Positions 6,024 through 39,793 of a DNA stretch of 64,000 nt are shown here, piece by piece. Origin of the DNA: Chloroflexota bacterium (GTDB taxonomy: Bacteria; Chloroflexota; Anaerolineae; UBA7937; B3-Chlor); contig JAUVXJ010000013.1 of the NCBI GenBank assembly GCA_030603665.1, positions 23,910 to 87,909 on the forward strand. Reading direction: 5' to 3'. Every line of letters starts with the position of its first letter. The stretch's first letter is position 1. A model generated the notes under the pieces. It saw only the letters and a program-made list of their open reading frames with translations. It was not told the origin of the DNA and searched no databases. Position numbers and translations under genes: made by a program.

Positions 6024-9000
6024 TCATCGTGTCGCCTTGTGCAGTCCTCGCCAGAGTTGCACCCCCGCCGGCAGTACCAACACTAGGGGCAGAGCAGCGC
6101 CCCAACACGGCCCGCGTCCGCCAGTCGTCGGCGTTGGCTCCAAAGCAGCTTCGGCAACCTCCGTCGTAGCCTCCGTGGCAACGCCAACATCCACGTCGCC
6201 TGTCAACTTCCCTCCATCCCCTGTCAACACGAAAGCTGCCCAGTAGTATGGATGCGGATACTCTGCTCTCACATCAATCTGTGCCTGACGTAGCGCCTCC
6301 GCTTTGCCCATCCCGGCACGAAGATGAGTGTAGAACCGCTCCATCAGCAGCGCCGTCGCCTCGTCATCGACGCTCCACAGGCTGGCAAGCACGCTCGGCG
6401 TTCCAGCGTAGAGGAACGCTCGACTCAAACCCACCACTTCATCACCTGCGCTCAACGTGCCGAGTTGCGTCTGGCACGCGCTGAGGACTACCAGATTGGT
6501 GGCTGCCGTCAAGTCTAGTCCGTAGACTTCGTGGACTTCCAGACGGCCGTCGTTTTGGGTATCTTCTGCCAGATAGATTGTGCTGAACAAGGGGTTGTTG
6601 CGGTCGTATTCGCCATGGGCTGCGATATGCAAGACACCTGCACCGCCACCCTGTGACCACACCACACTTTCCGTAGCGTCTTCTCCCGTCATGGCCTGCG
6701 TCCCGAAAAGTGCTGCGATGCTTATGGCTTCCTGTTCGGCAAAGCGCAACGCAGGCATTGGCTCGACAATGGTTGGATTGCCTAGCGCTAGCAGGTTGCC
6801 AGATTCGGACTTGCATTTCCCCTTAACGAAGGGCAGTAGGCTGGCACTGGGTAGGGTGAACAAGCCATGGTCGTCGCTCAGATACCTGTCGCCATCGGTG
6901 AGGGCGGCAAAGGGAAGGTAGTGGAGCACGTTGTGGGGGACAATCCCGAGCATCGAGGTGGTCAGATATGCTCTCAGCGGGGAGATGAGCCAGGCATAGA
7001 GTTGTTGCAGACTGGCCGGGTGGGGATCCTCCAGCCTGGCGAAATCCCGGAAGATTGTGATGGTCTCCGTTAGGTCTTCGCGACTGATGTCCAGCGCTAG
7101 GGCATTGAAGGTATCATGGGTGATGATGAAGGCCAGTGTTCGTCCTTCAGTTACGAAGTATTCGACCAATGTGGTGTTGGCGTCAAGCAGACCTTGGATC
7201 TCAGCCAACGAGGCCACGTCGACGCTGACGAGCGAGGCGAGCTCAGAGCTCTGTAGTTTGAGTTCGATCAGCAGGGCTTCGTAGTCTGCTTCAAGAGTGA
7301 TGAGCTCAGCTTGCGTGTCCATGATCGCACTAGTGTCCCGTTGCTCACGGGGACGATTGCGAAGAGTCACTAGTTGGGCGCGTCGCGCTGCGATTTCCGC
7401 GCGAAGCGTCTGCTCTTGGTCTAGCAGTATACGGGGGGCTCCGGCTCGGAAGTCTACCAGGCCACCCGCAAGTTGGTCGAGGAGTGCCCTTGCTCGAGCA
7501 CGCTCCGCATACTCGAAGGCCTCTTGGAGGCGACCCTCTTCCCAAAGGAGGTTGACGAGACGATCGTACACCGCGACCTCTTGAGCTGCATAGGTTCCCT
7601 TCAGTTCTGGGATCCCGATCTCTTTCTGAATGGACTCGACGACATCAGCGGCCTGCTGGTAGAAGGCGATCGCCTCTGAAACAAGACCGAGTTGCTCGTA
7701 TGCCAACCCAATCTTGTTGAGTGTCTTTCCTTCCCCCCTCCGGTCGCCGATCTCCTGTTGGATAGCCAGCGCCCGCTGGTGATAGTCAAGAGCCTGCTCA
7801 TTTTCGCCCAAGCTCCCGTAGACTGAGCCGATGTTGTCGAGCGTGTATCCTTCCCCGGCCCGGTCGCCGATCTCCTGTTGGATAGTCAGCGCCCGCTGGT
7901 GGTAGACCAGAGCCTGCTCATGTTGCCCCAGGGTCCAGTAGATCGTCCCAATGTTGTAGAGCGTGTTTCCTTCCCCGGCCCGGTCGCCGATCTCCTGTTG
8001 GATAGCCAGCGCCCGCTGGTAGTAGTCCAGAGCCTGCTCGTATTGGTTCGGACTCTCGTCGGCCCCGATGCTGTCCCGCGTGGCTGACTCGTCCGTCTGG
8101 TCGCCAGTGTCCTCGAGAGCATCATCGTGCCGGTGGTATACTAGACCAATGTTGTTGAGCGTCGTTGCTTCGCCCATCCGGTCGCCGATCTCTTGTTGGA
8201 CAGCCAGCGCCCGCTGATAGTACTCCAGCGCCCGGTCGTCTTGCCCCAAGTAGTCATAGACCAGACCGATGTTGTTGAGCCCGGATCCTTGTCCCAGCCG
8301 GTATCCAATCTCCTGGTAGACGGCCAGCGCCTGATGAAAGTAGACCAGCGCCTCCTCGTATTGGCCCAGGCTCCAGTAGACTGCCCCAGTGTTGTTGAGC
8401 GTCAGTGCTTCGTCCGCCGGGTCCTCGATCTCCTGTTGGATGGCCAGCGCCCGCTGGTGGTAGTCTAGAGCCCGCTCGTATTGGCCCAGGAGCCAGTAGA
8501 CTACACCGGTGTTCTGGAGCGTGGCTCCTTCCCCCGCCCGGTCTCCGATCTCCTGTCGGATGGCCAGCGAGCGCTGGTGGTAGTCAAGGGCATGATCGTA
8601 TCGGCCTAAGCTCCGGTAGACTGCCCCAATTGCGTTGAGCGCCCTTCCTTCTCCCGCGCGGTCGCCGATCTCCTGTTGGATAGCCAGCGCCTGCTGGTGG
8701 CAGTCCAGAGCCTCCTCATTCTGGCCCAAGTTCCCGTAGACTGTCCCGATCCTGTCGAGCACCGTTCCTTCGTGCCGCCGGTCGCCGATCTCCCGTTGGA
8801 TAGCCAGCGCCCGCTGGTAGTAGTCCAGAGCCTCCTTGTATTGGCCTAGGCTTGAGTAGATCGCCCCGATGTTATGCAGCGTTGCTCCTTCTCCCTCCCG
8901 GTCGCCGATCTCCTGTTGGATGCCCAGCGCGCGCTGGCAGTAGTCCAGAGCCTGCTCGTACTGGCCCACGCTCGCGTAGAAGGCAGCAATGTTGGCGAGC

Positions 9001-20650: not shown

Positions 20651-22918
20651 GTGAAGCTTAGCCAGGTTCTCACCCAGATGCAGGCCACCCCGAAGCTTCG
20701 GGACCACGTCACCGCCTGGAAGGTCACGCCCCGCTCCGAGGGAACCTTTGCCGACTTCCCTGTCAGTGTCGACCCGCGCCTGGTCAGCGTCCTGCGCGAG
20801 CGAGGCATCGAGCGCCTCTTCACCCACCAAAGGGAGGCCATCGAGGCCGTGCTCCAGGGCGAAAACGTGGTCGTGGTCACGCCCACCGCCTCGGGCAAGA
20901 CACTGTGCTACAACGTCCCCATCCTCAACTCCCTGCTGGAGAACTCCGAGTCCCGGGCCATGTATCTCTTTCCCACCAAGGCCCTCTCCCAGGATCAGCT
21001 GGACGAGCTCCACGGGCTGATCACCGATCTCGGTGTAGACATCAAGACCTACACCTACGACGGCGACACCCCGGTCAACGCCAGAAAGGCCATCCGCGCC
21101 GCCGGGCACGTGGTGATCACCAACCCCGACATGCTGCACACCGGCATCCTCCCCCACCACACCAAGTGGGTCAAGCTCTTCGAGAATCTCCAGTACGTGG
21201 TCATCGACGAAGTCCACCAATACCGCGGCGTCTTCGGCAGCCACTTGGCCAACGTCATCCGCAGGCTGAAGCGCATCTGTCAGTGGTACGGCGCCGATCC
21301 CACCTTCGTCCTCTGCTCCGCCACCATCGCCAATCCGGACGAACTGGCCCGTAGGCTCATCGAGGAGGACGTGCGCCTCATTGACACCGACGGCTCGCCC
21401 AAGGGGGAGAAGCACTTCGTCTTCTACAACCCTCCAGTGGTGAACAAGGAGCTGGGCATCCGCCGCTCCTCGGTCCACGAGGCCCGCTCCATGGCCAGGA
21501 ACTTCCTGCTCAACGACGTGCAGACTATCGTCTTCGCCCGCCGCCGCAAGACGGTGGAGGTGCTCCTTTCCTACCTCCAAGAGGACCTGAAGGGGACGCG
21601 CAGGGGAAGAAAGCAGGTGCGAGGCTATCGCGGAGGATATCTTCCCCAGGAGCGCAGGGAGATCGAAAAAGGGCTTCGCGAAGGAAAGGTGCGGGGCGTG
21701 GTGGCCACCAACGCCCTGGAGCTGGGCATAGACATCGGCGCTCTAGACGCCTGTGTGATCACCGGGTATCCCGGTACGATAACGAGCACCTGGCAGCAGG
21801 CCGGTCGCGCCGGCCGCCGGGCCGACGTCTCCTGCGCCGTCCTCGTCGCCAGTTCGTCGCCATTGGACCAGTACATCGTCACCCACCCGGAGTATTTCTT
21901 TGCACAGCCGCCGGAGCACGCTCTGGTCAATCCCGACAACCTGCTCATCCTCTTGAGCCACATCAAATGCGCTGCCTTCGAGCTGCCCTTCCAAGAAGGT
22001 GAGCCGTACGGTGGACAATCCATCGATCAGATCCTTCAATTCCTGGAAGAGCAAGGCATCCTCCACAAGGCGGGAGACACCTACCACTGGAGCGCCGACG
22101 CGTACCCTGCAGGGGAGATTAGCCTCCGCACCGCAGCCCGCGACAACTTCGTGATCATCGACACCTCTGGCAGCGAGCCCCGCGTTATCGGGGAGGTGGA
22201 TAGCTTCAGCGCCCCCACCACGGTCCACGAAGATGCCATCTACATCCACCAGGGAGAGCAGTATCAGATCGACACGCTGGATTGGGAAGGGAAGAAGGCC
22301 TACGCCACCCACGTGGACGTCGACTACTACACGCAGGCCAGCCTGGCCGTCGAGGTGAGGGTCATAGATGAGTTCCAGGCGGAGCGCATCCAAAGATGCG
22401 ACAAGGCCCACGGAGAGGTCCTCCTCTCCGCCCTGGCTACCATCTACAAGAAGATCAAGCTGTGGACCCACGAGAATATCGGCTGGGGGGACGTGCGGCT
22501 CCCTGAGCAAGAGATGCAAACCACCGCCTACTGGCTCAGCTTCCCAGAAGAATTGACGGCGACCTTCAAGGCCTCCGACGTGGAAAGCGGGCTGGTGGGG
22601 CTCTCCAACGTCCTGGCCAACGTCGCCCCCCTCTTTCTGATGTGCGATCCTGGCGACGTTGGTGTGAAGGCCGAGGTGCGCTCCCCTCACACCAAGAAAG
22701 CCACCATCTTCATCTACGACCGGGTACCAGCGGGCATAGGCTTCGCCGAGAAATTGTATCGCGTTCATGGCCAGCTTCTGCATGCGGCCGAGCAGTTGAT
22801 CGGCGACTGTGGCTGTCCCACTGGCTGTCCCTCTTGCGTGGGCCCGGAGGACGAAATAGGTACAAGGGGAAAGAGGAACGCCCTCCGCCTGTTGGAGGAA
22901 GCCAGGAAGGACAACTAG
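20651..22918 (+). CDS. mrfA: MrfA/YprA-family DEAD/DEAH-box helicase with a C-terminal DUF1998 zinc domain
   Basis: Helicase motifs are TPTASGKT, VIDEVHQY and QQAGRAGRR. The C-terminal four-Cys cluster is GDCGCPTGCPSC. Confidence 0.8.
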   Translation: MKLSQVLTQMQATPKLRDHVTAWKVTPRSEGTFADFPVSVDPRLVSVLRERGIERLFTHQREAIEAVLQGENVVVVTPTASGKTLCYNVPILNSLLENSESRAMYLFPTKALSQDQLDELHGLITDLGVDIKTYTYDGDTPVNARKAIRAAGHVVITNPDMLHTGILPHHTKWVKLFENLQYVVIDEVHQYRGVFGSHLANVIRRLKRICQWYGADPTFVLCSATIANPDELARRLIEEDVRLIDTDGSPKGEKHFVFYNPPVVNKELGIRRSSVHEARSMARNFLLNDVQTIVFARRRKTVEVLLSYLQEDLKGTRRGRKQVRGYRGGYLPQERREIEKGLREGKVRGVVATNALELGIDIGALDACVITGYPGTITSTWQQAGRAGRRADVSCAVLVASSSPLDQYIVTHPEYFFAQPPEHALVNPDNLLILLSHIKCAAFELPFQEGEPYGGQSIDQILQFLEEQGILHKAGDTYHWSADAYPAGEISLRTAARDNFVIIDTSGSEPRVIGEVDSFSAPTTVHEDAIYIHQGEQYQIDTLDWEGKKAYATHVDVDYYTQASLAVEVRVIDEFQAERIQRCDKAHGEVLLSALATIYKKIKLWTHENIGWGDVRLPEQEMQTTAYWLSFPEELTATFKASDVESGLVGLSNVLANVAPLFLMCDPGDVGVKAEVRSPHTKKATIFIYDRVPAGIGFAEKLYRVHGQLLHAAEQLIGDCGCPTGCPSCVGPEDEIGTRGKRNALRLLEEARKDN

Positions 22919-22958
22919 CATCGCTCAACCTCACAGCAGGCACACAGAGAAGACATCT

Positions 22959-24221
22959 ATGGTCGAGGACCTGCGCCAGCAACTGGAGCGGTTGGTATCG
23001 GGCCGGCTAGGGACCACTCATCTGCAGCGACCAGAGAGGGTGCGCTCCCGACCCATCGAGGAGTTGGTCGGCGGCGAGGTGAGAGAGGCCTCGCACGGCA
23101 CTTGCGTCGTTGTGGATCAGATCTACCCAGCCGGGTACCAGCAAGGACAGGTGGAGATCAGCAGCGCGCTGTCTCACCGTTCGCAGACGGTGGCCGGCAT
23201 AGGTCGCGACCCCGGGCTGGAGGCGCTGGAGCTCCAGAAGAGCGCCTTCCTCGATGTGGAGACTACGGGACTGGCAGGAGGCGCGGGCACCTACGCGTTC
23301 CTGGTGGGCATAGGATGGTTCGATGGGCAGGACTTCCGCCTCCGCCAGGTCTTCATGCGCGACTACGGAGAGGAACCAGCCCTCGTCTCTGCGCTAGAGG
23401 AAACTCTGGAGCCTCTATCAGGCGTAGTCTCCTTCAACGGCAAGGCCTTCGACGTTCCCCTGCTGGAGACCCGTTTCATCATGTCACGGCGGCGCTTCCC
23501 CCTCTCCTCCGCACCACACCTTGACCTCCTGCACATGGCGCGCCGTCTGTGGAGTCTGCGATTGGAGAACTGCCGGCTCTCCAGCCTGGAGACGGAGATC
23601 CTGGGACTCGAACGTCACGGTGACGTGCCCAGCCATCTCGTGCCCCAACTCTACTTCGACTACTTGAGGCACGGCCGCGCGGAGCCACTGGAGGGAGTGT
23701 TCTACCACAACGCTCAGGACATCCTCTCCCTGGCGGCCCTGACCGCGCTCTCATGCACGGTCTATGAGGACCCCCTGAGCCACGAGACGACGTGCGGCGA
23801 AGATCTCTACAGCCTGGGAAGGCTCTATTCCCTCGCTGGGCTGGGTGACCGCGCCGAGATAGCGCTCCGCGCTGCCCTGGATGCACCTATCCCTGAAGAA
23901 CTGAGGTGGCAGACGGTCCACCACCTCTCCTTCCATCTCAAGCGCCAGGGCATGTGGCCAGAGGCCATTGAGCTGTGGCAGTTGGCCATCGAAGAAAATC
24001 ACGGGAGGCTGTACCCTTTCTTGGAGCTGGCCAAGTACTACGAGCACCGAGCCAAGGACTTCCAAACGGCTGAGGCGCTGGTCTTGAGAGCCATGGAACT
24101 CGTACAGGCTTCGGCTGCCAGTCGCGGGACGTGGTGGACCGAGAGGCGGCTGGGGGAGCTGGAGCACCGGCTGCGGCGGGTGCAGCTCAAGAGAGCCCGC
24201 CACGGGGACGGTGAAAGCTGA
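22959..24221 (+). CDS. mrfB: MrfB/YprB-like RNase-H-fold exonuclease with a C-terminal TPR-like domain
   Basis: It has the DnaQ/RNaseH-like motif FLDVETTGL and the later acidic residues. It lies immediately downstream of mrfA, as in Bacillus mrfAB. Confidence 0.65.
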   Translation: MVEDLRQQLERLVSGRLGTTHLQRPERVRSRPIEELVGGEVREASHGTCVVVDQIYPAGYQQGQVEISSALSHRSQTVAGIGRDPGLEALELQKSAFLDVETTGLAGGAGTYAFLVGIGWFDGQDFRLRQVFMRDYGEEPALVSALEETLEPLSGVVSFNGKAFDVPLLETRFIMSRRRFPLSSAPHLDLLHMARRLWSLRLENCRLSSLETEILGLERHGDVPSHLVPQLYFDYLRHGRAEPLEGVFYHNAQDILSLAALTALSCTVYEDPLSHETTCGEDLYSLGRLYSLAGLGDRAEIALRAALDAPIPEELRWQTVHHLSFHLKRQGMWPEAIELWQLAIEENHGRLYPFLELAKYYEHRAKDFQTAEALVLRAMELVQASAASRGTWWTERRLGELEHRLRRVQLKRARHGDGES

Positions 24222-29260: not shown

Positions 29261-29904
29261 AACAGCCTAGCTCCTCCAATCACGCCGTTCGCCGACGATG
29301 CCATCGACGAATCACCCTACGGCATCCTCATCGGATATGTCGCCTCATGGTCCTAGCACCTAGCTTGTCCTGCAACAGACAACACGCATGGGCCGAAATG
29401 GCTATTGACAGTACAGATGCTAGACCGATATACGCAGCTACCGATGCATCCGTGCCCATGTCCCCGGCTCGACTCCTTGACAGTCGGGATCACACGCCAG
29501 AAGGGAGATGGATCGCGAACTTGCAGACATCGTCGCCTTGGAGCACGCTCTCCAGCATCTCCACTTCGACGCTCTGTTGCAGTATCTCCTCCCAGATGCC
29601 CCTGTAGAAGCCACCCCCACAGTAGCAGTACGTTGGAGAGATGCTCACGGATGACTTCAACGCATCCCGGACTCTAGGGCAATGACAGTACAGCTGCTGC
29701 CACGTGGCCCCCGGCAAGGGATGTACCCCACTCTTGCCCGCTTGTGCCCCTCAGCGTATCATTAGTCAACTAGGAGACGGCGCATCACTCCCGCGGGGCA
29801 TGCTCCGAGGAACCAGTGCGGGGTGGCAGGGTCGGCGGCGAGCACAGGACCCCCGGCATCAAGCGGGTCCCTGACGCGAATAGCCAGAAGGGTAGGAGGG
29901 CACC

Positions 29905-30465
29905 ATGCGTATCGAGAAAGCATCATTCCTGGGAGGCGCCGACTTCCAATCAGGCGATCAGACCTACAAGGACGTTTTCGAGACCGCCAGACTCCTGGCT
30001 CAGAGCAGCATCACGGTGTTGAACGGTGGCGGCCCCGGTGTGATGCGAGCTGCAACCGAGGGAGCTCATGAAGGCGGCGGCCGCGCCGTGGGAGTCACCT
30101 ACTACCCCAAGTACGAACACGCCACGTACGAAGGCAGGGATTTCCTCAACCATTTCGATGAAGAGGTGGTAACGGCAGACTATTTCGAGCGTACCCAGAC
30201 TCTCTTGGAGATGGGAGATGTCCACATAGTGTTCAGGGGCGGGACGGGCACCATCAGTGAATTCGGCATGAGCTGGGCCCTGTCCAGGATTCACCTGGGC
30301 CACAGCGTCCCCCTGCTCCTCTTCGGAGGGTTCTGGGAGGAGATCACCAACTGCCTCAAGGAGTACATGTACATGCGGGAGGACGAGTTCCGCATCTACC
30401 ATGTCGTCACTTCCCCACAAGAGGTCCTCGATACGATACGGAAGCTGGAGCAAGCCACAACCTGA
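29905..30465 (+). CDS. LOG-family (TIGR00730, Rossmann-fold nucleotide-binding) protein
   Basis: It has the motifs LNGGGPGVMRAATEGA and FRGGTGTISEF (GGGxGxM / PGGxGTxxE) and is 186 aa. Confidence 0.7.
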   Translation: MRIEKASFLGGADFQSGDQTYKDVFETARLLAQSSITVLNGGGPGVMRAATEGAHEGGGRAVGVTYYPKYEHATYEGRDFLNHFDEEVVTADYFERTQTLLEMGDVHIVFRGGTGTISEFGMSWALSRIHLGHSVPLLLFGGFWEEITNCLKEYMYMREDEFRIYHVVTSPQEVLDTIRKLEQATT

Positions 30466-30493
30466 CAGCGCATCTAGAGAGGGAGAGTAGTCC

Positions 30494-31351
30494 ATGACCA
30501 GCGAGAAGATCACGGTCGTGAAGCGCTCCGGGGAATACGAGCCCTTCTCCGAAAGAAAGGTTCGAACCTCCCTCATGAGGGCCGGAGCAGATGATGGGCT
30601 CATCGACGCCATCGTCCGCCGGGTCGAGAGAGAGCTCTACGATGGCATCTCCACCAGGGAGATCTATGCCCACGTCTTCGCACTGCTCAGAGAACTCCAG
30701 AGCCCCCTGGTGTCCAAGTATGACTTGAAGAGATCGATCATGGAGCTTGGTCCCTCGGGCTTTCCCTTCGAGAAGTTCGTGGCCGGTGTCCTCCAGGCCC
30801 AGGGGTTCACCGTGGCGGTGGGGCAGATAGTCCAGGGTAAGTGCGTCGACCATGAGGTGGATATGATCGCCCAGAAGGGTCACAGGCATTACATGATCGA
30901 GGCCAAGTTTCACAACCAGCCCGGCCTTAAATCGGACATCAAAGATGCACTGTACACCTATGCCAGGTTTCTGGACGTCGAGCAAATCTGGGTGGAGATC
31001 GCCGGCCACCGGGCTCACCTGCACCGGGCCTGGCTCATCACCAACACCAAGGTCACGTCGAAAGTGAGGGAATACGCCAAGTGCGCAGGCATGCGGGTGA
31101 CGAGCTGGAACTACCCCTCCAGAGCCAGTCTGAGGTTGATGGTAGAAGAGAGCGGCCTGCTCCCTGTGACCTCTCTCCAGTCCCTTGGCCCAGAGGACAA
31201 GGCGAGGCTCCTCGGGGAAGGTATCATCTTCTGTCGCGAGCTGCCGGAACGGGACATCCCCTTCCTGAGCCGCCACAAGCTCGAGAAAGCACGCAAGGAG
31301 GCCCTGGAGGCGTGCAGAGGGAAGGTCTCTCCATCCCAGGTAGAGTCATGA
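30494..31351 (+). CDS. ATP-cone domain fused to a Mrr-cat-like PD-(D/E)xK restriction-endonuclease domain
   Basis: The N-terminus ITVVKRSGEYEPFSERKVRTSLMRAG matches the ATP-cone start. The nuclease core is FEKFVAGVLQAQGFTVAV...VDHEVDMIAQK...YMIEAKFH...LITNTKVTSKVREYAKCAGM. Confidence 0.65.
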   Translation: MTSEKITVVKRSGEYEPFSERKVRTSLMRAGADDGLIDAIVRRVERELYDGISTREIYAHVFALLRELQSPLVSKYDLKRSIMELGPSGFPFEKFVAGVLQAQGFTVAVGQIVQGKCVDHEVDMIAQKGHRHYMIEAKFHNQPGLKSDIKDALYTYARFLDVEQIWVEIAGHRAHLHRAWLITNTKVTSKVREYAKCAGMRVTSWNYPSRASLRLMVEESGLLPVTSLQSLGPEDKARLLGEGIIFCRELPERDIPFLSRHKLEKARKEALEACRGKVSPSQVES

Positions 31352-32653: not shown

Positions 32654-33289
32654 CTACCCAGCTCCAACAAGCTCGCTCGCTTTCCTCACCGCCGCGGATG
32701 CATCTGGAGCGTAGCCGTTGGCACCTATCTCGTCGCAGTACTCCTGGGACAAGGGCGCGCCGCCCACCAGCACCTTCACCCCATCGAGCAGACCGGCCTT
32801 GGCCAGCGCCTTCATGGTCCTCTCCATAGCGGGCATGGTGGTAGTCATCAGCGCCGACATGCCCACGATATCCGTCTTGGCCTGTTGCAGCGCTGCTACG
32901 AACTTCTCAGGAGCCACGTCTGCTCCCAGGTCAACGATCTCAAAGCCCGCTCCTTCGAGCATCGTACAGACCAGGTTCTTCCCCAAGTCGTGCATGTCGC
33001 CCTGCACGGTCCCCATGGCCACACGACCGACTGCGGTCGATTGTTCACCCACCATCAAGGGCCTCAACACACCGAGTCCAGCCTGCATCGCACGAGACGC
33101 GATGAGCATCTCAGGCACGAAGAACTCGGCTCTCTCGAACCGAGCACCCACCTCCGCCATAGCCGGAACGAGACTCTCGGCGATGACCTGCTGAGGTGTT
33201 GCACCTTCTGCCACAGCCTGCTTCACCAGTGTCTCAACAGAAGTCCCGTCGCCTCGCAACACCGCGTCGTATATCTCTCTCACGTCCAT
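32654..33289 (-). CDS. Corrinoid (B12)-binding protein of a methyltransferase system
   Basis: The B12-binding motif is GTVQGDMHDLGKN (DxHxxG). A Rossmann-like C-terminal domain and an N-terminal helical cap are present. The start is taken at MDVREIYDAV. Confidence 0.7.
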   Translation of the reverse strand: MDVREIYDAVLRGDGTSVETLVKQAVAEGATPQQVIAESLVPAMAEVGARFERAEFFVPEMLIASRAMQAGLGVLRPLMVGEQSTAVGRVAMGTVQGDMHDLGKNLVCTMLEGAGFEIVDLGADVAPEKFVAALQQAKTDIVGMSALMTTTMPAMERTMKALAKAGLLDGVKVLVGGAPLSQEYCDEIGANGYAPDASAAVRKASELVGAG

Positions 33290-33402
33290 CGATGATCCTC
33301 CGGCCTCCTGCACCGCCTGCGTTCTCCGGCCCAACTGCCGCTGACTTATGACCTATTGGGAATACTGCACTCCCGATCCGCGCCCGTCTCCAAGCCCTCC
33401 GA

Positions 33403-34548
33403 TTACCCTCCGATAGGATACTGGCCGTATTCGTGTGCGGCTTCGAACAGAGCCACGATATTATCCGGGGGTACATCGGGCTGTATGTTGTGTATAGTAC
33501 CAAAAACGAATCCTCCCCCCGGCGCCAAGTCGTTGATACGCCTCCTTGCCTCCTCCTTCACATCACGCGGCGTTCCAAAGGGCAGCACCCGTATTGGATC
33601 GGCGCCTCCACCCCAGAAGACGATGTCCCGTCCAAACTCCCGCTTCAGTCTGTCCGTCTCCATGTCCCTGGCTGAGACCTGCACCGGGTTGATGATGTCT
33701 ACTCCGCTCTCGATTATGTCGGATAGGGCCCAGTAGATAGATCCACAGCAGTGCAGGAAGATCTTGGCATCGGTCTTCTGGTGAATGAGATCCGTGAGGC
33801 GACGATGCCGCAGCTTGTACACCTCCCGGTACAGGTCGGGGGAGAAAAGAGGCCCGTGTTGGCCACCCAGGTCGTCGCTCAACTCGACCACGTGAACGGA
33901 TGGTCCCACCTCGTCCAGCACCAGGCTCCAGAACTCCAGCAGCCACTCCAGCACCCTCTCGGCCAGGGCCTCCACGTACGCCCTGTTATCCGCCATGTCC
34001 ATGAACAACGCTTCAAGTCCGCGCAGCCAGTACGACTGTTCGAAGACACCGCCGATGGGCGCGTGAATCATTACCGCCTTGTCGGTCTCCTCCAGCAGGC
34101 GCTTGGCCTCATCCGCCAGGCCCTTCACTCGACTGGGGTCGCCCGCGTCGGGAAACTGGAAGTTCTTCAACTCCTCGATGGTCCCCTCCTGGAGAGGATG
34201 ACCTGCCAGATCATACCAGTATCCCCCTGGAGGTCGCCGGTAGACCACGCCCCACTCGTCCACGAAGCTGTCGGTCTCCGGGTCAAGCTTGAACTCGAAA
34301 TCGGCTGCATCGTGAGGAAAGAAGCCCACGACATCCGCATGGAACATATCCTTCACTGCAGGTGCCGGGTCCACTATCTGCTGGAAGGTGTCCATGATGG
34401 GGATGTCGTCCGTCGGGAGTCCCAGATACAGGAGAAGGTTGCGATAAGCCTCGTGGTGCAGCGAGGTGACCAGCCCCCCGAAGTCGATGGGCACCCGATC
34501 AGGCTCTTGGTGGTCCAGAGCAAGAAGAACTCTCTCCCGACTGTTCAT
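33403..34548 (-). CDS. Uroporphyrinogen-decarboxylase-family methyltransferase (MtaA/MtbA/CmuA-like, methylcorrinoid:acceptor)
   Basis: It has a URO-D-like TIM-barrel signature (PIDFGG near the N-terminus; FLHCCGS). It is adjacent to a corrinoid protein. Confidence 0.6.
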   Translation of the reverse strand: MNSRERVLLALDHQEPDRVPIDFGGLVTSLHHEAYRNLLLYLGLPTDDIPIMDTFQQIVDPAPAVKDMFHADVVGFFPHDAADFEFKLDPETDSFVDEWGVVYRRPPGGYWYDLAGHPLQEGTIEELKNFQFPDAGDPSRVKGLADEAKRLLEETDKAVMIHAPIGGVFEQSYWLRGLEALFMDMADNRAYVEALAERVLEWLLEFWSLVLDEVGPSVHVVELSDDLGGQHGPLFSPDLYREVYKLRHRRLTDLIHQKTDAKIFLHCCGSIYWALSDIIESGVDIINPVQVSARDMETDRLKREFGRDIVFWGGGADPIRVLPFGTPRDVKEEARRRINDLAPGGGFVFGTIHNIQPDVPPDNIVALFEAAHEYGQYPIGG

Positions 34549-37761: not shown

Positions 37762-39147
37762 TCAATAGGGGAACTGGAGGCCCAGAGTTGCTAGCTGTTC
37801 CTTGACTCGCCGGTAGAGGCCGAGATAATCCTCACTCGGCAGAGATGTCCGCACATCGTAGCACTCCCGGAACTCACTGCCCAGAGGTGCATCGGCGATC
37901 TGCTCTTCGTACCTGTCCAGGATCTTCGAGACGAGATCGTTGGCCTCCTTGCGACTGAGCCGCATATTGGCGACGGCGTGTCCCGTTTCAGCAGCCATGC
38001 GCGCCTCCATGGGGGTGGCCCGATTCTTGTGTTTGTTGCGCGCTGGCGCCGCCTCCCAGAGATTAGCGCCGGACACAGTGCTGGTCAGCGCGTGAGCTGC
38101 CGCTTCGTAGAGCACCATCTCCGTTGCCGGGCCTGCGTTGAGGAAGCCATTGGACACAGAGATGATCTTGCTGTTTCTGGCAACGGCCTGATGGCTGGCG
38201 CTGGCCACCCACAGCAGTTCCCTGCTCGTTCCGGACGTGTAGTGGATGTGGAAGGGGAAGTTCATCTGGTAGTGCGCCTGATGGACCAGCAGACCCATGA
38301 GATGATAGGCCACCTGAAGCACGGCCGTCCCCTCAGCCCGGCCCGCGTATCCACCAAAGATCGGTCCTGTCAGGCTCCCGGTGAAACAGCCGAACTGCTG
38401 ATAGTGAGCAGCCTTATTGAGCAGCGCGTTGTCGATCTTCAGCTCGGTCAGTCCTCCAACGAGGCGGCTGTCCGAAGTCCGCACCCCCCAATCGGAACTG
38501 CTGATCGATATCTGCCCCACGTCCGACTCGGCGGTCCCCGCGGCGACCAGGAAGATGCCCGGGCGCCCCACCAGCTTGGCCGCCTCACGCAGACTCATAG
38601 CATGTTCCATGCTCCCCGCCAGTTCGGTGGGCGTCTTGGCCTTGATCTTCAGACCCATGCTCTCCTCGAGAATGGGAGCGCAAAACCCGTCGGCCAGGGG
38701 TTCTCTCAAGTACGCCACGCACATGGGCAGGAACAGCTCCTCGTCGCAGGAGATGTCAGGACTGAAGATCACGAAGGGAGGGTCCTCGTCCTCCACGTCA
38801 CGGCATCTCAACAGGCAGGAATCCTTGCCCAAACCGACCGTGTACTGTCCGGGAATCAAGTATAGCGCTTCCCGCACCTCACTCTCATCGAAGGTGAGAA
38901 TGCGGTGGGTATCCACGCAGAGAACGCCCACCTCCAGGAAGAACTCCACCCCGGCTTGCCACACGGCGTCGGCCAACGCATCATCGCTGGGGATAGGAGT
39001 GGCAGGATCGTACTCTATGCCGTACTTCTTGATCACCTCCTGCATCTTGGGCATGAAGCGGTCCATGGTGAACGCCTCGTCCTCACAGAAGGGGCCCGTG
39101 CGAGCTCGCTCCAGGATCTCCCACATCTTATACGGTGGCGCTGGCAT
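37762..39147 (-). CDS. MtmB-superfamily (monomethylamine methyltransferase-like) protein lacking pyrrolysine
   Basis: It is 461 aa, the same size as MtmB. A GRPG motif lies near residue 210 where MtmB carries Pyl, with no in-frame TAG here. The C-terminal FRECYDVRT...LGLQF resembles the MtmB C-terminus as I recall it. The gene order corrinoid protein - this gene - permease mirrors mtmCBP. Confidence 0.5.
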   Translation of the reverse strand: MPAPPYKMWEILERARTGPFCEDEAFTMDRFMPKMQEVIKKYGIEYDPATPIPSDDALADAVWQAGVEFFLEVGVLCVDTHRILTFDESEVREALYLIPGQYTVGLGKDSCLLRCRDVEDEDPPFVIFSPDISCDEELFLPMCVAYLREPLADGFCAPILEESMGLKIKAKTPTELAGSMEHAMSLREAAKLVGRPGIFLVAAGTAESDVGQISISSSDWGVRTSDSRLVGGLTELKIDNALLNKAAHYQQFGCFTGSLTGPIFGGYAGRAEGTAVLQVAYHLMGLLVHQAHYQMNFPFHIHYTSGTSRELLWVASASHQAVARNSKIISVSNGFLNAGPATEMVLYEAAAHALTSTVSGANLWEAAPARNKHKNRATPMEARMAAETGHAVANMRLSRKEANDLVSKILDRYEEQIADAPLGSEFRECYDVRTSLPSEDYLGLYRRVKEQLATLGLQFPY

Positions 39148-39793
39148 CCCCTCTCCTCAACTCCATCACCTTGCCCAAGACTGCCACGGCTTGCATGGCA
39201 TTCTCCGCCCACGAATCGGCGCCGATCTCCTCCGCCCAGGCATCCGTCACGGGCGTGCCTCCTACCATGACGATGAAGCGCTCGCGCAGCCCCATGTCCT
39301 TCAACAACTCGACTATCTCCTGCTGGCCGGGCATCGTCGTGGTCATCAATGCCGAGGCGCCGATGACGTCAGCGTCAACCTCCTGTGCCTTCTTGATGAA
39401 ATCGAGGGCGTTGACGTCGGGCCCCATATCGTGAACAGTGTAGCCGTTCACCTCGAGAAGCAGAGCCACGATGCTCTTGCCGATCTCATGGATGTCTCCT
39501 TCCACCGTGCCGATGACCACTGTGCCTTTCGGGGGCCGCTTCTCCTTCAGTAGCTCCAGGTGGGGAGCTACTGGCTCCAGGGCCTTCTGCATGGCCTGGG
39601 CCGCCAGCATCATCTCCGGCAGGAAGACCTCCATGCGCTCGAAACGGTCCCCCACCTCCCGGATGGCATCGGTCAAGGCATCCACCACTGCCAGAGGATC
39701 CATCTTGTCCGCCATAGCCTGTTGGGCCAGGGCCAGGGCATCCTCGTCTTCACCGTCTTCCACAGCCTGCACCAGACTCTCCAGCAAATCCAT
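39128..39793 (-). CDS. Corrinoid (B12)-binding protein, translationally coupled to the MtmB-like gene (20-bp overlap)
   Basis: The B12-binding motif is GTVEGDIHEIGKS (DxHxxG) and it is 221 aa. Its stop at 39128 lies inside the start region of the next gene. Confidence 0.7.
   Translation of the reverse strand: MDLLESLVQAVEDGEDEDALALAQQAMADKMDPLAVVDALTDAIREVGDRFERMEVFLPEMMLAAQAMQKALEPVAPHLELLKEKRPPKGTVVIGTVEGDIHEIGKSIVALLLEVNGYTVHDMGPDVNALDFIKKAQEVDADVIGASALMTTTMPGQQEIVELLKDMGLRERFIVMVGGTPVTDAWAEEIGADSWAENAMQAVAVLGKVMELRRGDASATV

Follow-up and report, generated by a model that had tools for sequence, protein, structure and literature searches.

A LOG-family gene and an ATP-cone/nuclease fusion gene in a Chloroflexota bacterium: a candidate module for nucleic-acid and nucleotide turnover

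In a 64-kb stretch of DNA from a Chloroflexota bacterium (the whole of what was analysed, called here the window), a gene of the LOG family is directly followed by a gene encoding an ATP-cone fused to a PD-(D/E)xK nuclease core. We propose, with moderate confidence, that the two make up a small module, probably transcribed as one, that turns over nucleic acids and nucleotides, and not an immune system. The second gene would encode a nuclease of the AF1548 type whose activity is set by the ATP/dATP status of the cell through its N-terminal ATP-cone, as an analogy to ribonucleotide reductase and NrdR suggests. The first would encode a LOG-type phosphoribohydrolase, converting nucleoside 5'-monophosphates into free base and ribose-5-phosphate. 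In energy limitation, cells would in this way couple regulated nucleic-acid cleavage to the salvage of ribose phosphate and bases for use in the pentose-phosphate pathway. The proposal draws on the intact enzyme motifs, the stability of the pair, the metabolic operons around the nuclease, the contexts of the LOG orthologs, a Patescibacteria locus holding both genes, the associations of both with a beta-CASP hydrolase, the known chemistry of LOG and PpnN, and the negative outcome of the defence tests. The ligand, whether the substrate is RNA or DNA, the direction in which activity is regulated and any metabolic hand-over from nuclease to LOG protein are inferred from this evidence.

The two genes and their products

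A preliminary description of this DNA had reported two same-strand genes 28 bp apart, and both ORFs were confirmed at the following positions of the window.

29905..30465, + strand: LOG-family (SLOG cluster 4 / Lysine_decarbox) gene, ORF of 186 aa; predicted nucleotide 5'-monophosphate phosphoribohydrolase
30466..30493, + strand: spacer between the LOG and nuclease genes, 28 bp, with Shine-Dalgarno-like GGGAGA
30494..31351, + strand: ATP-cone / AF1548-type PD-(D/E)xK nuclease fusion gene, ORF of 285 aa
30512..30703, + strand: ATP-cone domain, residues 7-70, predicted ATP/dATP sensor (Pfam, fold superposition)
30758..31087, + strand: Mrr-like PD-(D/E)xK core, residues 89-198 (Pfam Mrr_cat, AF1548 match)
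31106..31318, + strand: C-terminal helical domain, residues ~205-275, common to AF1548 (alignment, model)

Shine-Dalgarno-like sequences precede both start codons, AGGAGG 5 nt ahead of the LOG ATG and GGGAGA 7 nt ahead of the nuclease ATG. A promoter and terminator scan, whose counts equalled the shuffled expectation and which is informative solely on this point, found no terminator-like hairpin in the gap between the genes. Because the gap is 28 bp long and without terminator, the two genes are likely co-transcribed.

In Pfam profile searches, the LOG protein matched LDcluster4 (PF18306; 1.6e-16, 60.7 bits, cut-off 26.3) and Lysine_decarbox/LOG (PF03641; 7.4e-15, 55.7 bits, cut-off 27). The fusion protein matched ATP-cone (PF03477) over residues 7-70 (1.2e-09, 39.0 bits, cut-off 25.8) and Mrr_cat (PF04471) over residues 89-198 (6.2e-07, 30 bits, cut-off 21). 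All four matches, two per protein, lie above curated thresholds and are thus far beyond chance, and the domains named in the preliminary description (LOG, ATP-cone, Mrr-like nuclease) were correctly called.

The best solved relatives of the LOG protein are TT1465 (1WEK, 3e-15) and several cytokinin riboside 5'-monophosphate phosphoribohydrolases. As in the LOG and PpnN phosphoribohydrolases, the LOG fold comes with a GGGxGxM motif, a catalytic Arg and the Glu of (P)GGxGTxxE; here these are GGGPGVM (residues 41-47), Arg96 in FERT, and GGTGTISE (residues 112-119, with Glu119), found in 118-119 of 119 subfamily members (Arg96 in 119, Glu119 in 118). Unlike those enzymes, the protein belongs to a divergent subfamily in which the Pro of PGGxGTxxE is replaced by Arg, Lys or Asn (Arg in our protein), and it is devoid of the PAG domains of PpnN. 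It scored below the NCBIfam trusted cut-offs of TIGR00730 (65.5 versus 96.35), TIGR00725 (44.5 versus 106.9) and the cytokinin-RMP phosphoribohydrolase equivalog (33.2 versus 300). The chemistry of LOG and PpnN, from NMP to base and ribose-5-phosphate, is established (PMC6717881).

The AlphaFold model of the fusion protein (pLDDT 82.5) places strands at residues 7-9 and 15-17 and helices at 20-29, 34-47 and 54-67, in agreement with a four-helix cone with a beta-hairpin lid. This domain superposes on the cones of NrdR and ribonucleotide reductase (RNR) with an rmsd of 1.6-2.2 Å over 70-80 residues. Fold comparison was used instead of a phmmer search of the ATP-cone alone against the PDB, in which the top matches were spurious, to designed helical repeats, and NrdR appeared at E 1.1. 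The signature VVKRSGxxEPFSxxKV aligns to S. coelicolor NrdR and, as in the NrdR and RNR cones, the domain occupies the N-terminal ~70 residues and carries a conserved K-(R/A)-x-G ... K signature. Unlike in known cones, the position of Arg11 in the KR pair is taken by Ala in the majority of the nuclease family (120 of 196). From the conservation of K10 (194 of 196 relatives), G13 (196 of 196) and K22 (194 of 196), the cone is predicted to bind ATP/dATP and to pass on an allosteric signal. Its output domain would be a nuclease, versus a Zn-ribbon DNA binder in NrdR and a reductase in RNR. Neither is the arrangement that of NrdR, a protein of ~150 aa with an N-terminal Zn-ribbon and then the ATP-cone: the fusion protein has no Zn-ribbon, and its cone is N-terminal and followed by the nuclease. 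To our knowledge, the experimentally established roles of ATP-cones are limited to allosteric switching in ribonucleotide reductases and in the NrdR repressor. If the cone does control the nuclease here, the same switch would extend to the cleavage of nucleic acids.

The catalytic motif pointed out earlier, VDHEVDMIAQK...IEAKFH, is real and not degenerate: it corresponds to D123 ... E136-x-K138, invariant in 17 of 17 diverse homologs, and the candidate catalytic residues E93, D123, E136 and K138 are kept in 194-195 of 196 relatives. The PD-(D/E)xK core is thus intact, and the protein is predicted to be a metal-dependent nuclease. Its core and C-terminal helical domain match AF1548 of Archaeoglobus fulgidus, a structural-genomics protein (PDB 1Y88), both by sequence (phmmer E 7.4e-34, residues 95-254) and by fold (Foldseek E 4.6e-15, TM 0.77 on the target). 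The only account of AF1548 that we found in the literature is a 2007 GOS prediction (PMC1821046), in which the predicted triad D38/E51/K53 is equivalent to D123/E136/K138 of the fusion protein. AF1548 has no ATP-cone, and its own function is predicted only. A Cys/His metal site (C117, H120, H140, C197) was considered and dropped, as H120 is Gln in AF1548. The Mrr_cat fold and the D...ExK residues are shared with Mrr (type IV) restriction endonucleases. Unlike Mrr, the fusion protein has no Mrr_N or other modified-DNA-reading domain, the ATP-cone being the only Pfam domain N-terminal to the core, and no restriction or defence context.

The C-terminal domain comprises helices 213-220, 233-241, 247-252 and 260-274 in the model, and W205, P208, L213, P224, T226, L231, K236 and L239 are invariant in the 17 diverse homologs. 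The conserved pattern GLxPxTxLxSLxxxxKxxLLxxGI suggests helix-hairpin-helix-like binding of nucleic acid. A domain of this kind would be more apt for duplex DNA than for bulk RNA, a point against the turnover reading.

Homologs with the same ATP-cone/nuclease architecture number 2,798, and the nuclease family spans at least 596 species and ~2,800 sequence clusters, Patescibacteria with reduced genomes included. The family is catalogued, and no experimental characterisation of it was found in the literature. Nor did a literature search for an ATP-cone joined to a nuclease, a restriction endonuclease, a SLOG domain or a universal stress protein, or for the gene set of the operons described below, bring up any account of such a fusion.

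Pairing of the two genes across genomes

The LOG gene lies directly upstream of the nuclease gene in 11 loci, with nuclease identities of 65-87%, in one Anaerolineales-type clade. There, the pair is a stable unit, unbroken under two different arrangements of the flanking genes. Relatives at 63%, 60%, 59% and 51% nuclease identity lack the pairing, as do approximately 74 of 75 Bacteroidota and Patescibacteria species loci, among the loci examined (the best 80 of at least 596). The preliminary description had held that its proposal would fall if the pairing were not conserved in other genomes; in our neighbourhood survey only one clade shows the pairing, and the expected conservation across taxa largely failed.

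Within a single clade, the pairing could persist by synteny inertia. The two genes might then be neighbours without joint function, the LOG protein being a housekeeping enzyme of pentose-phosphate or nucleotide metabolism and the nuclease a DNA repair or recombination enzyme tuned by dATP/ATP, structure-specific or resolvase-like, with adjacency as inherited synteny. Besides the restriction of the pairing to one clade, this would account for the wider syntenic block of the pair-bearing genomes (DNA_alkylation, PLP decarboxylase, DUF1801 and a 302-aa protein) and for the DNA-repair genes upstream in the window, which encode an MrfA-like helicase, an RNase_H_2 exonuclease and an AlkD-like DNA_alkylation protein. 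It would also agree with the helix-hairpin-helix resemblance of the C-terminal domain, with the name 'Holliday junction resolvase' given to homologs by JGI, and with a weak Pfam Hjc match (E 0.16), which however is below threshold. On the other hand, the pair remains contiguous while both flanks change, the 28-bp gap without terminator suggests a single transcript, and the nuclease is independently tied to nucleotide-cleaving and pentose enzymes in three other phyla, once to LOG. We therefore regard the absence of a joint function as rather unlikely.

Neighbours of the nuclease and of LOG in other phyla

Outside the clade, members of the nuclease family belong to operons whose genes share one strand. 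Across 51 loci of Bacteroidota, the neighbouring genes encode a beta-CASP hydrolase (23 loci), which is aCPSF1-like, tandem USP (21), a P-type ATPase (17), a TP-family protein (13), a 2-hydroxyacid dehydrogenase (12), GAPDH type II (11), PRPP synthetase (9) and PPK2 (6). The TP-family neighbour is of the archaeal type (NF003338/TIGR02645 by NCBIfam) and scores 495 bits against the AMP-phosphorylase model. A common core, ATP-cone protein > MBL > TP-family > PRPP synthetase, is annotated in RefSeq for both Pontibacter and Criblamydia; in Criblamydia its flanks hold phosphoketolase, GlgP and acetate kinase. One Patescibacteria locus (L072) carries both genes of our pair on a single strand, in the order NUC > TIM > RpiB > PGK > GAPDH > Rpe > LOG.

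Two kinds of neighbours do not speak for turnover. The nuclease gene follows YceG/MnmA in 6-7 of 19 Patescibacteria loci, and as these have no link to nucleotide catabolism they count against the turnover reading. P-type ATPases of several subtypes, the most pervasive neighbours, are left unexplained by it. Furthermore, genes for beta-CASP, TP, PRPP synthetase, USP, PPK2 and P-type ATPase are all absent from the 64-kb window, so that the argument from operons is borrowed from other phyla.

Orthologs of the LOG protein, at 56-63% identity, are found in sugar-phosphate operons (RpiB > Rpe > LOG > transketolase > PfkB > 2-HADH) and, in a second setting, near DeoC, PfkB and FBP aldolase. Because of these pentose-phosphate operons, the predicted role of an enzyme leading from NMP to ribose-5-phosphate fits the LOG protein better than that of a signal processor. 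In Patescibacteria, LOG orthologs function without the nuclease, which counts against a joint module. The beta-CASP protein adjoining LOG in loci L093-95 is a full-length homolog of the beta-CASPs adjoining the nuclease (35-38% identity, E ~1e-100), and the associations between LOG, beta-CASP and nuclease form a triangle.

Archaea and CPR bacteria reportedly salvage nucleotides via AMP phosphorylase, in the pentose bisphosphate pathway, by which nucleotides feed central carbon metabolism. The operon partners of the nuclease in Bacteroidota and Chlamydiota recall this pathway, as an archaeal-type AMP/thymidine-phosphorylase homolog occurs among them, together with sugar-phosphate enzymes. They differ from it in that neither R15P isomerase nor RuBisCO is present in the loci examined. 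LOG is predicted to hydrolyse its substrate, versus phosphorolysis in the archaeal/CPR pathway, and a nuclease would be a new element there, proposed only. Under the turnover proposal, LOG would replace, in the Anaerolineales-type clade, the archaeal-type AMP/thymidine phosphorylase and the PRPP synthetase of the Bacteroidota and Chlamydiota operons headed by the same nuclease.

A broader scheme can be put forward tentatively, as a possibility that we hold less firmly than the module itself. The nuclease may act, under adenylate gating, as the entry enzyme of a so far undescribed, multi-phylum energy-salvage route from nucleic acid to pentose phosphate, of which the LOG-nuclease pair would be the minimal form. 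Switched on by a drop in ATP/dATP, such as dormancy or hypoxia might bring, the nuclease would be followed by the beta-CASP exonuclease, then by NMP cleavage by the AMP-phosphorylase-like enzyme or LOG, and finally by steps of the pentose-phosphate, phosphoketolase or glycolysis pathways, with PPK2 and USP as adenylate-linked accessories. The recurrent operon partners thus amount to a concrete proposal for how bacteria might recycle nucleic acids to ribose phosphate and ATP under energy limitation.

In the conserved core operon, the gene of the ATP-cone protein often comes first, a position that would also suit a regulator. The protein could be an NrdR-like, nucleotide-responsive DNA-binding protein whose nuclease fold and C-terminal helices bind operators, the adjacent metabolic genes being controlled by ATP/dATP. 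NrdR shows that an ATP-cone can be joined to a DNA-binding module, and the cone of our protein is structurally closest to that of NrdR. However, conservation of the four PD-(D/E)xK catalytic residues at ~99% across phyla is unexpected for a purely DNA-binding derivative, and the match to NA-iREase1, a Pfam family of inactive REases, is below threshold (13.8 bits versus 27). A purely regulatory role appears improbable to us.

Defence context

The preliminary description had seen a nucleotide-sensing nuclease beside a nucleotide-processing enzyme, and from this a nucleotide-signalling conflict system. The first part stands as a prediction; the second does not agree with the evidence from PADLOC, phages, plasmids, flanks and neighbourhoods. 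In such a two-gene system, LOG would make or degrade a signal, and the ATP-cone nuclease would be the effector destroying phage or host nucleic acid. The idea has a structural basis, since the CARF-fused Can2, Card1 and Cdn1 of type III CRISPR follow the same logic of a small-ligand sensor and an Mrr-like nuclease. After AF1548, the nuclease domains of CARF enzymes, including the Can2/Cdn1 effectors, are among the next-best matches by fold (E 5e-3 to 5e-2). Moreover, SLOG domains are said, after Burroughs et al. 2015, to occur in some conflict systems. Unlike the CARF enzymes, the fusion protein has an ATP-cone as sensor, no CARF match, and no CRISPR or defence context; PADLOC CARF_PDDEXK gave insignificant matches, to its nuclease part only (E 0.008-0.025). 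If the ATP-cone does act as proposed, an adenylate/dATP-sensing member would be added to the ligand-gated PD-(D/E)xK nucleases, of which the CARF enzymes are the best-known examples.

Neither protein had a significant match in PADLOC-DB v2. The best one, at E 3.2e-4, was between LOG and a 40-residue stretch of PsyrA, a weak point in favour of defence, and the others were at E 3e-3 to 3.5e-2. As these matches are sub-significant and partial, membership of a known defence system was rejected. No defence enrichment was detected near the nuclease by PADLOC in 150 flanking genes, supplied via a dummy alignment, from 75 genomes. Few and scattered matches occurred in these flanks, mainly to generic PP-loop, ABC-ATPase and methyltransferase profiles, with single RT_UG29 and RTasDnaG-like (reverse-transcriptase-type) matches. 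In the window, the pair is surrounded by housekeeping and repair genes, and neither composition anomaly nor mobile-element genes were seen at the locus. Family-wide, the nuclease neighbours are genes of stress, nucleotide and pentose metabolism.

An immune role is very improbable in view of these results, of the pairing not being conserved across taxa, of the pentose-phosphate operons of the LOG orthologs, and of the stable, vertically conserved metabolic operons that hold the nuclease across genera and phyla, reduced Patescibacteria genomes included. This negative also matters, because a sensor-nuclease next to a SLOG enzyme resembles an immune system on paper, and the context evidence here points away from one. 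Mobile genomes gave the same picture: tblastn searches found nuclease homologs in none of 50,697 phage records and on only 2 of 72,556 plasmids, and both of these plasmid copies lie in the metabolic operon and not among defence genes.

The LOG gene, the nuclease gene and their pairing

The two genes lie on the same strand, 28 bp apart, exactly as the preliminary description had placed them, and its LOG, ATP-cone and Mrr-like assignments were confirmed by Pfam profile search, all four matches exceeding the curated thresholds:

29905-30465 (+): LOG/SLOG gene, 186 aa; LDcluster4 (1.6e-16) and Lysine_decarbox (7.4e-15)
30494-31351 (+): ATP-cone/nuclease gene, 285 aa; ATP-cone at residues 7-70 (1.2e-09), then Mrr_cat at residues 89-198 (6.2e-07)

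Each is preceded by a properly spaced Shine-Dalgarno-like sequence, and a terminator scan of the gap found none, so that co-transcription is likely.

Conservation across taxa, which the preliminary description had proposed to survey, did not hold: the pairing is kept in one clade only. Nuclease homologs are carried by at least 596 species-representative loci, and among the best 80 of these, an adjoining LOG was found in L008 only. A co-oriented LOG lies directly upstream of the nuclease in L001 (78% nuclease identity), L003 (66%) and L008 (65%, labelled Anaerolineales), and in metagenome loci L096-L101, L107 and L111 (65-87% where measurable). Contigs of equal length in the nuclease and LOG match lists indirectly suggest the pairing in further contigs, down to ~61% identity. 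LOG is absent upstream of the nuclease in L103 (63%), L114 (60%), L117 (59%) and L104/105 (51%). Where present, the contiguous pair occurs in two arrangements, either between DUF6144 and an M29 peptidase gene, both on the opposite strand, or between a 302-aa gene and DUF6144, all co-oriented. The pair therefore behaves as a unit.

The Cys-rich DUF6144 gene is full-length and divergently upstream of LOG in the close relatives L001, L096, L098 and L100, and directly downstream of the nuclease in L003, L008 and L101. In the window, only its C-terminal 69 residues (162-230 of 234) remain, at 29502-29708 (-), between the 302-aa gene and LOG. Thus DUF6144 tracks the pair and is truncated here, the region upstream of LOG having been remodelled.

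Restriction to one clade is what would be expected if the two genes were independent neighbours and the nuclease acted in DNA repair or recombination. Its tail is helix-hairpin-helix-like, and repair genes lie upstream: at 20651-24221 (+), the gene of an MrfA-type helicase (DEAD/Helicase_C/WHD_HRQ1/MZB) precedes that of a TPR-tailed RNase_H_2 exonuclease, and the two presumably form an MrfAB-like DNA-repair pair. We consider this explanation unlikely, though the best of the alternatives. Other genes around the pair encode GNAT, DNA_alkylation and DUF1801 proteins, a PLP decarboxylase, an M29 aminopeptidase, corrinoid proteins, a URO-D-type methyltransferase, an MFS transporter and an MtmB homolog.

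Anatomy of the two proteins

An AlphaFold model of the nuclease, built on 17 diverse homologs, was confident (pLDDT 82.5, pTM 0.73) and has three parts. The modelled N-terminal domain overlays the ATP-cones of both NrdR and class I ribonucleotide reductases with an rmsd of 1.6-2.2 A, and S. coelicolor NrdR aligns to its VVKRSGxxEPFSxxKV signature. The core and the C-terminal helical domain together match one solved structure, AF1548 (PDB 1Y88; sequence E 7.4e-34, fold E 4.6e-15). AF1548 is a structural-genomics protein of predicted function, proposed in 2007 to be restriction-endonuclease-like with catalytic D38/E51/K53 (PMC1821046); the literature searched contained nothing else on it. These residues correspond to D123/E136/K138 of the nuclease.

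Degeneracy of the catalytic residues is clearly absent: E93, D123, E136 and K138 are conserved in 194-195 of 196 family members, and the cone residues K10, G13 and K22 in 194-196. The protein therefore gives the impression of a functional nuclease that carries a functional sensor. An NrdR-like regulator built on a nuclease scaffold would hardly keep its catalytic residues near-invariant, and we hold this alternative improbable.

Among solved structures, LOG is closest to TT1465 (1WEK, 3e-15) and to several cytokinin riboside 5'-monophosphate phosphoribohydrolases. Its GGGxGxM loop, catalytic R96 and E119 of the (P)GGxGTxxE motif are conserved in 118-119 of 119 subfamily members. It scores under the NCBIfam cut-offs of TIGR00730 and TIGR00725, and so belongs to a divergent LOG subfamily.

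The nuclease combines known kinds, ATP-cone allostery and sensor-fused PD-(D/E)xK nucleases. Its architecture is already catalogued, with thousands of proteins annotated 'ATP cone domain-containing protein', and the window locus is an ordinary member; the literature searched contained no paper on the family and no characterised member.

Search for defence associations, and neighbourhoods in other phyla

The proposal of a nucleotide-signalling conflict system found no support and is very improbable. PADLOC gave no significant match for either protein; the direct neighbours of the nuclease in 75 genomes, 150 genes in all, gave scattered, mostly generic matches (QueC-like PP-loop, ABC-ATPase-like AriA/LmuA/PtuA, methyltransferases and isolated reverse-transcriptase-type DRT matches). 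Homologs of the nuclease numbered 0 in 50,697 phage records and 2 in 72,556 plasmids, both in loci with the metabolic operon described below, and neither the surrounding genes nor the locus GC (0.58; rest of the window mostly 0.58-0.63) points to defence. This corrects a tempting annotation of a sensor-nuclease beside LOG as a defence system.

ORFs of 80 loci were clustered, and clusters typed by Pfam and NCBIfam. A same-strand operon recurs in Bacteroidota: 2-hydroxyacid dehydrogenase (2-HADH), tandem USP, nuclease, (84-aa ORF), aCPSF1-like beta-CASP/RMMBL hydrolase, archaeal-type thymidine/AMP-phosphorylase family, PRK07199-type ribose-phosphate diphosphokinase (PRPP synthetase), unknown 217-aa and 97-aa proteins, PPK2 and P-type ATPase, with type II GAPDH upstream. 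Among the 51 Bacteroidota loci within the best 80 of at least 596, the nuclease lies beside beta-CASP in 23, USP in 21, P-type ATPase in 17, the phosphorylase in 13, 2-HADH in 12, type II GAPDH in 11, PRPP synthetase in 9 and PPK2 in 6. RefSeq annotation independently confirmed the core (ATP cone protein, MBL fold, thymidine phosphorylase family, ribose-phosphate pyrophosphokinase) in Pontibacter actiniarum and in Criblamydia sequanensis (Chlamydiota), where it sits amid P-type ATPase, phosphoketolase, glycogen phosphorylase (GlgP) and acetate kinase. No description of this operon was found in the literature searched.

The same-strand core crosses phyla (L017, L024, L030, L048, L051, L052, L054, L069, L070, L112 from Pontibacter, L113 from Criblamydia), frequently accompanied by tandem USP, PPK2, type II GAPDH and 2-HADH. 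The ~84-aa ORF, without Pfam or NCBIfam match, immediately follows the nuclease in 9 Flavobacteriia-type loci (L027, L030, L035, L036, L041, L051, L052, L054, L056; ~6850-7150 in each), and the 217-aa and 97-aa proteins of no known function are conserved further along. L069, L087, L015, L064, L073 and L077 come from MAGs labelled Citrobacter or Gammaproteobacteria, yet have Bacteroidota-typical arrangements, L087 sharing the gene order of Terrimonas locus L081; these labels are probably wrong.

In Patescibacteria, u411, YceG and MnmA often precede the nuclease (6-7/19 loci). In one locus (L072), it heads a series of FeS-assembly, TIM, RpiB, PGK, GAPDH, Rpe and LOG genes, this 45%-identical LOG lying 5 kb downstream on the same strand.

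P-type ATPases of varying subtype (HMA/HMBD heavy-metal, Cation_ATPase_N/C) are the most pervasive neighbours across phyla, in 24 of 80 species loci. In L001, L003 and L008 the distance between such a gene and the pair is 3-4 kb, and others occur at L006, L010, L113, L114 and L117; the 64-kb window has none. A mechanistic link to the nuclease is not evident.

LOG orthologs of 56-63% identity in Patescibacteria lack a neighbouring nuclease. Some occur in the order RpiB, Rpe, LOG, transketolase N/C, PfkB, 2-HADH, others near DeoC, PfkB and FBP aldolase. The operons lie on Patescibacteria/WWE3-type contigs (L088-L092, L115-L116), with transketolase split. Their content points to LOG as a source of ribose-5-phosphate, made from NMPs, in these reduced genomes. 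In some loci, LOG is divergently adjoined by a beta-CASP hydrolase, a full-length homolog of those beside the nuclease (35-38% identity, E ~1e-100). Thus any two of nuclease, LOG and beta-CASP are associated in one lineage or another, and each of the three is linked to pentose-phosphate or nucleotide enzymes.

A candidate role in nucleotide turnover

To judge by their motifs, the PD-(D/E)xK nuclease and the ATP-cone of the fusion are both intact, as is the LOG enzyme encoded just upstream. Within its clade the pair is stably kept, and each of the two genes turns up repeatedly in the company of nucleotide, pentose and energy-stress genes. The physiology of nucleotide turnover or energy stress, and not defence, is the probable setting of the locus.

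Enzymes of the LOG/PpnN type split nucleoside 5'-monophosphates by hydrolysis, releasing the base and ribose-5-phosphate (PMC6717881). In a coupled scheme, the ATP-cone would report ATP/dATP status and gate cleavage; the 5'-phosphate ends left would suit beta-CASP 5'-3' exonucleases, where present; the resulting NMPs would be split into bases and ribose phosphate, by LOG here and by the AMP-phosphorylase-like enzyme in Bacteroidota/Chlamydiota; and ribose phosphate would enter co-encoded pentose-phosphate, phosphoketolase or glycolytic steps. This specific scheme is tentative, and the general reading blended with it stands at about even chances. With USP, PPK2, PfkB and P-type ATPases, the gene set has something of an energy-limitation/dormancy regulon and may compare with the mycobacterial DosR regulon. 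Drawn wholly from genomic context, the proposal gives a large orphan family a hypothesis specific enough to be put to the test.

Elsewhere in the window, 32654-34548 (-) and 37762-39793 (-) encode two corrinoid (B12-binding) proteins, a URO-D-type methyltransferase and a full-length 461-aa homolog of the monomethylamine methyltransferase MtmB. The last has no in-frame stop, which makes it a bacterial member of the MtmB family without pyrrolysine.
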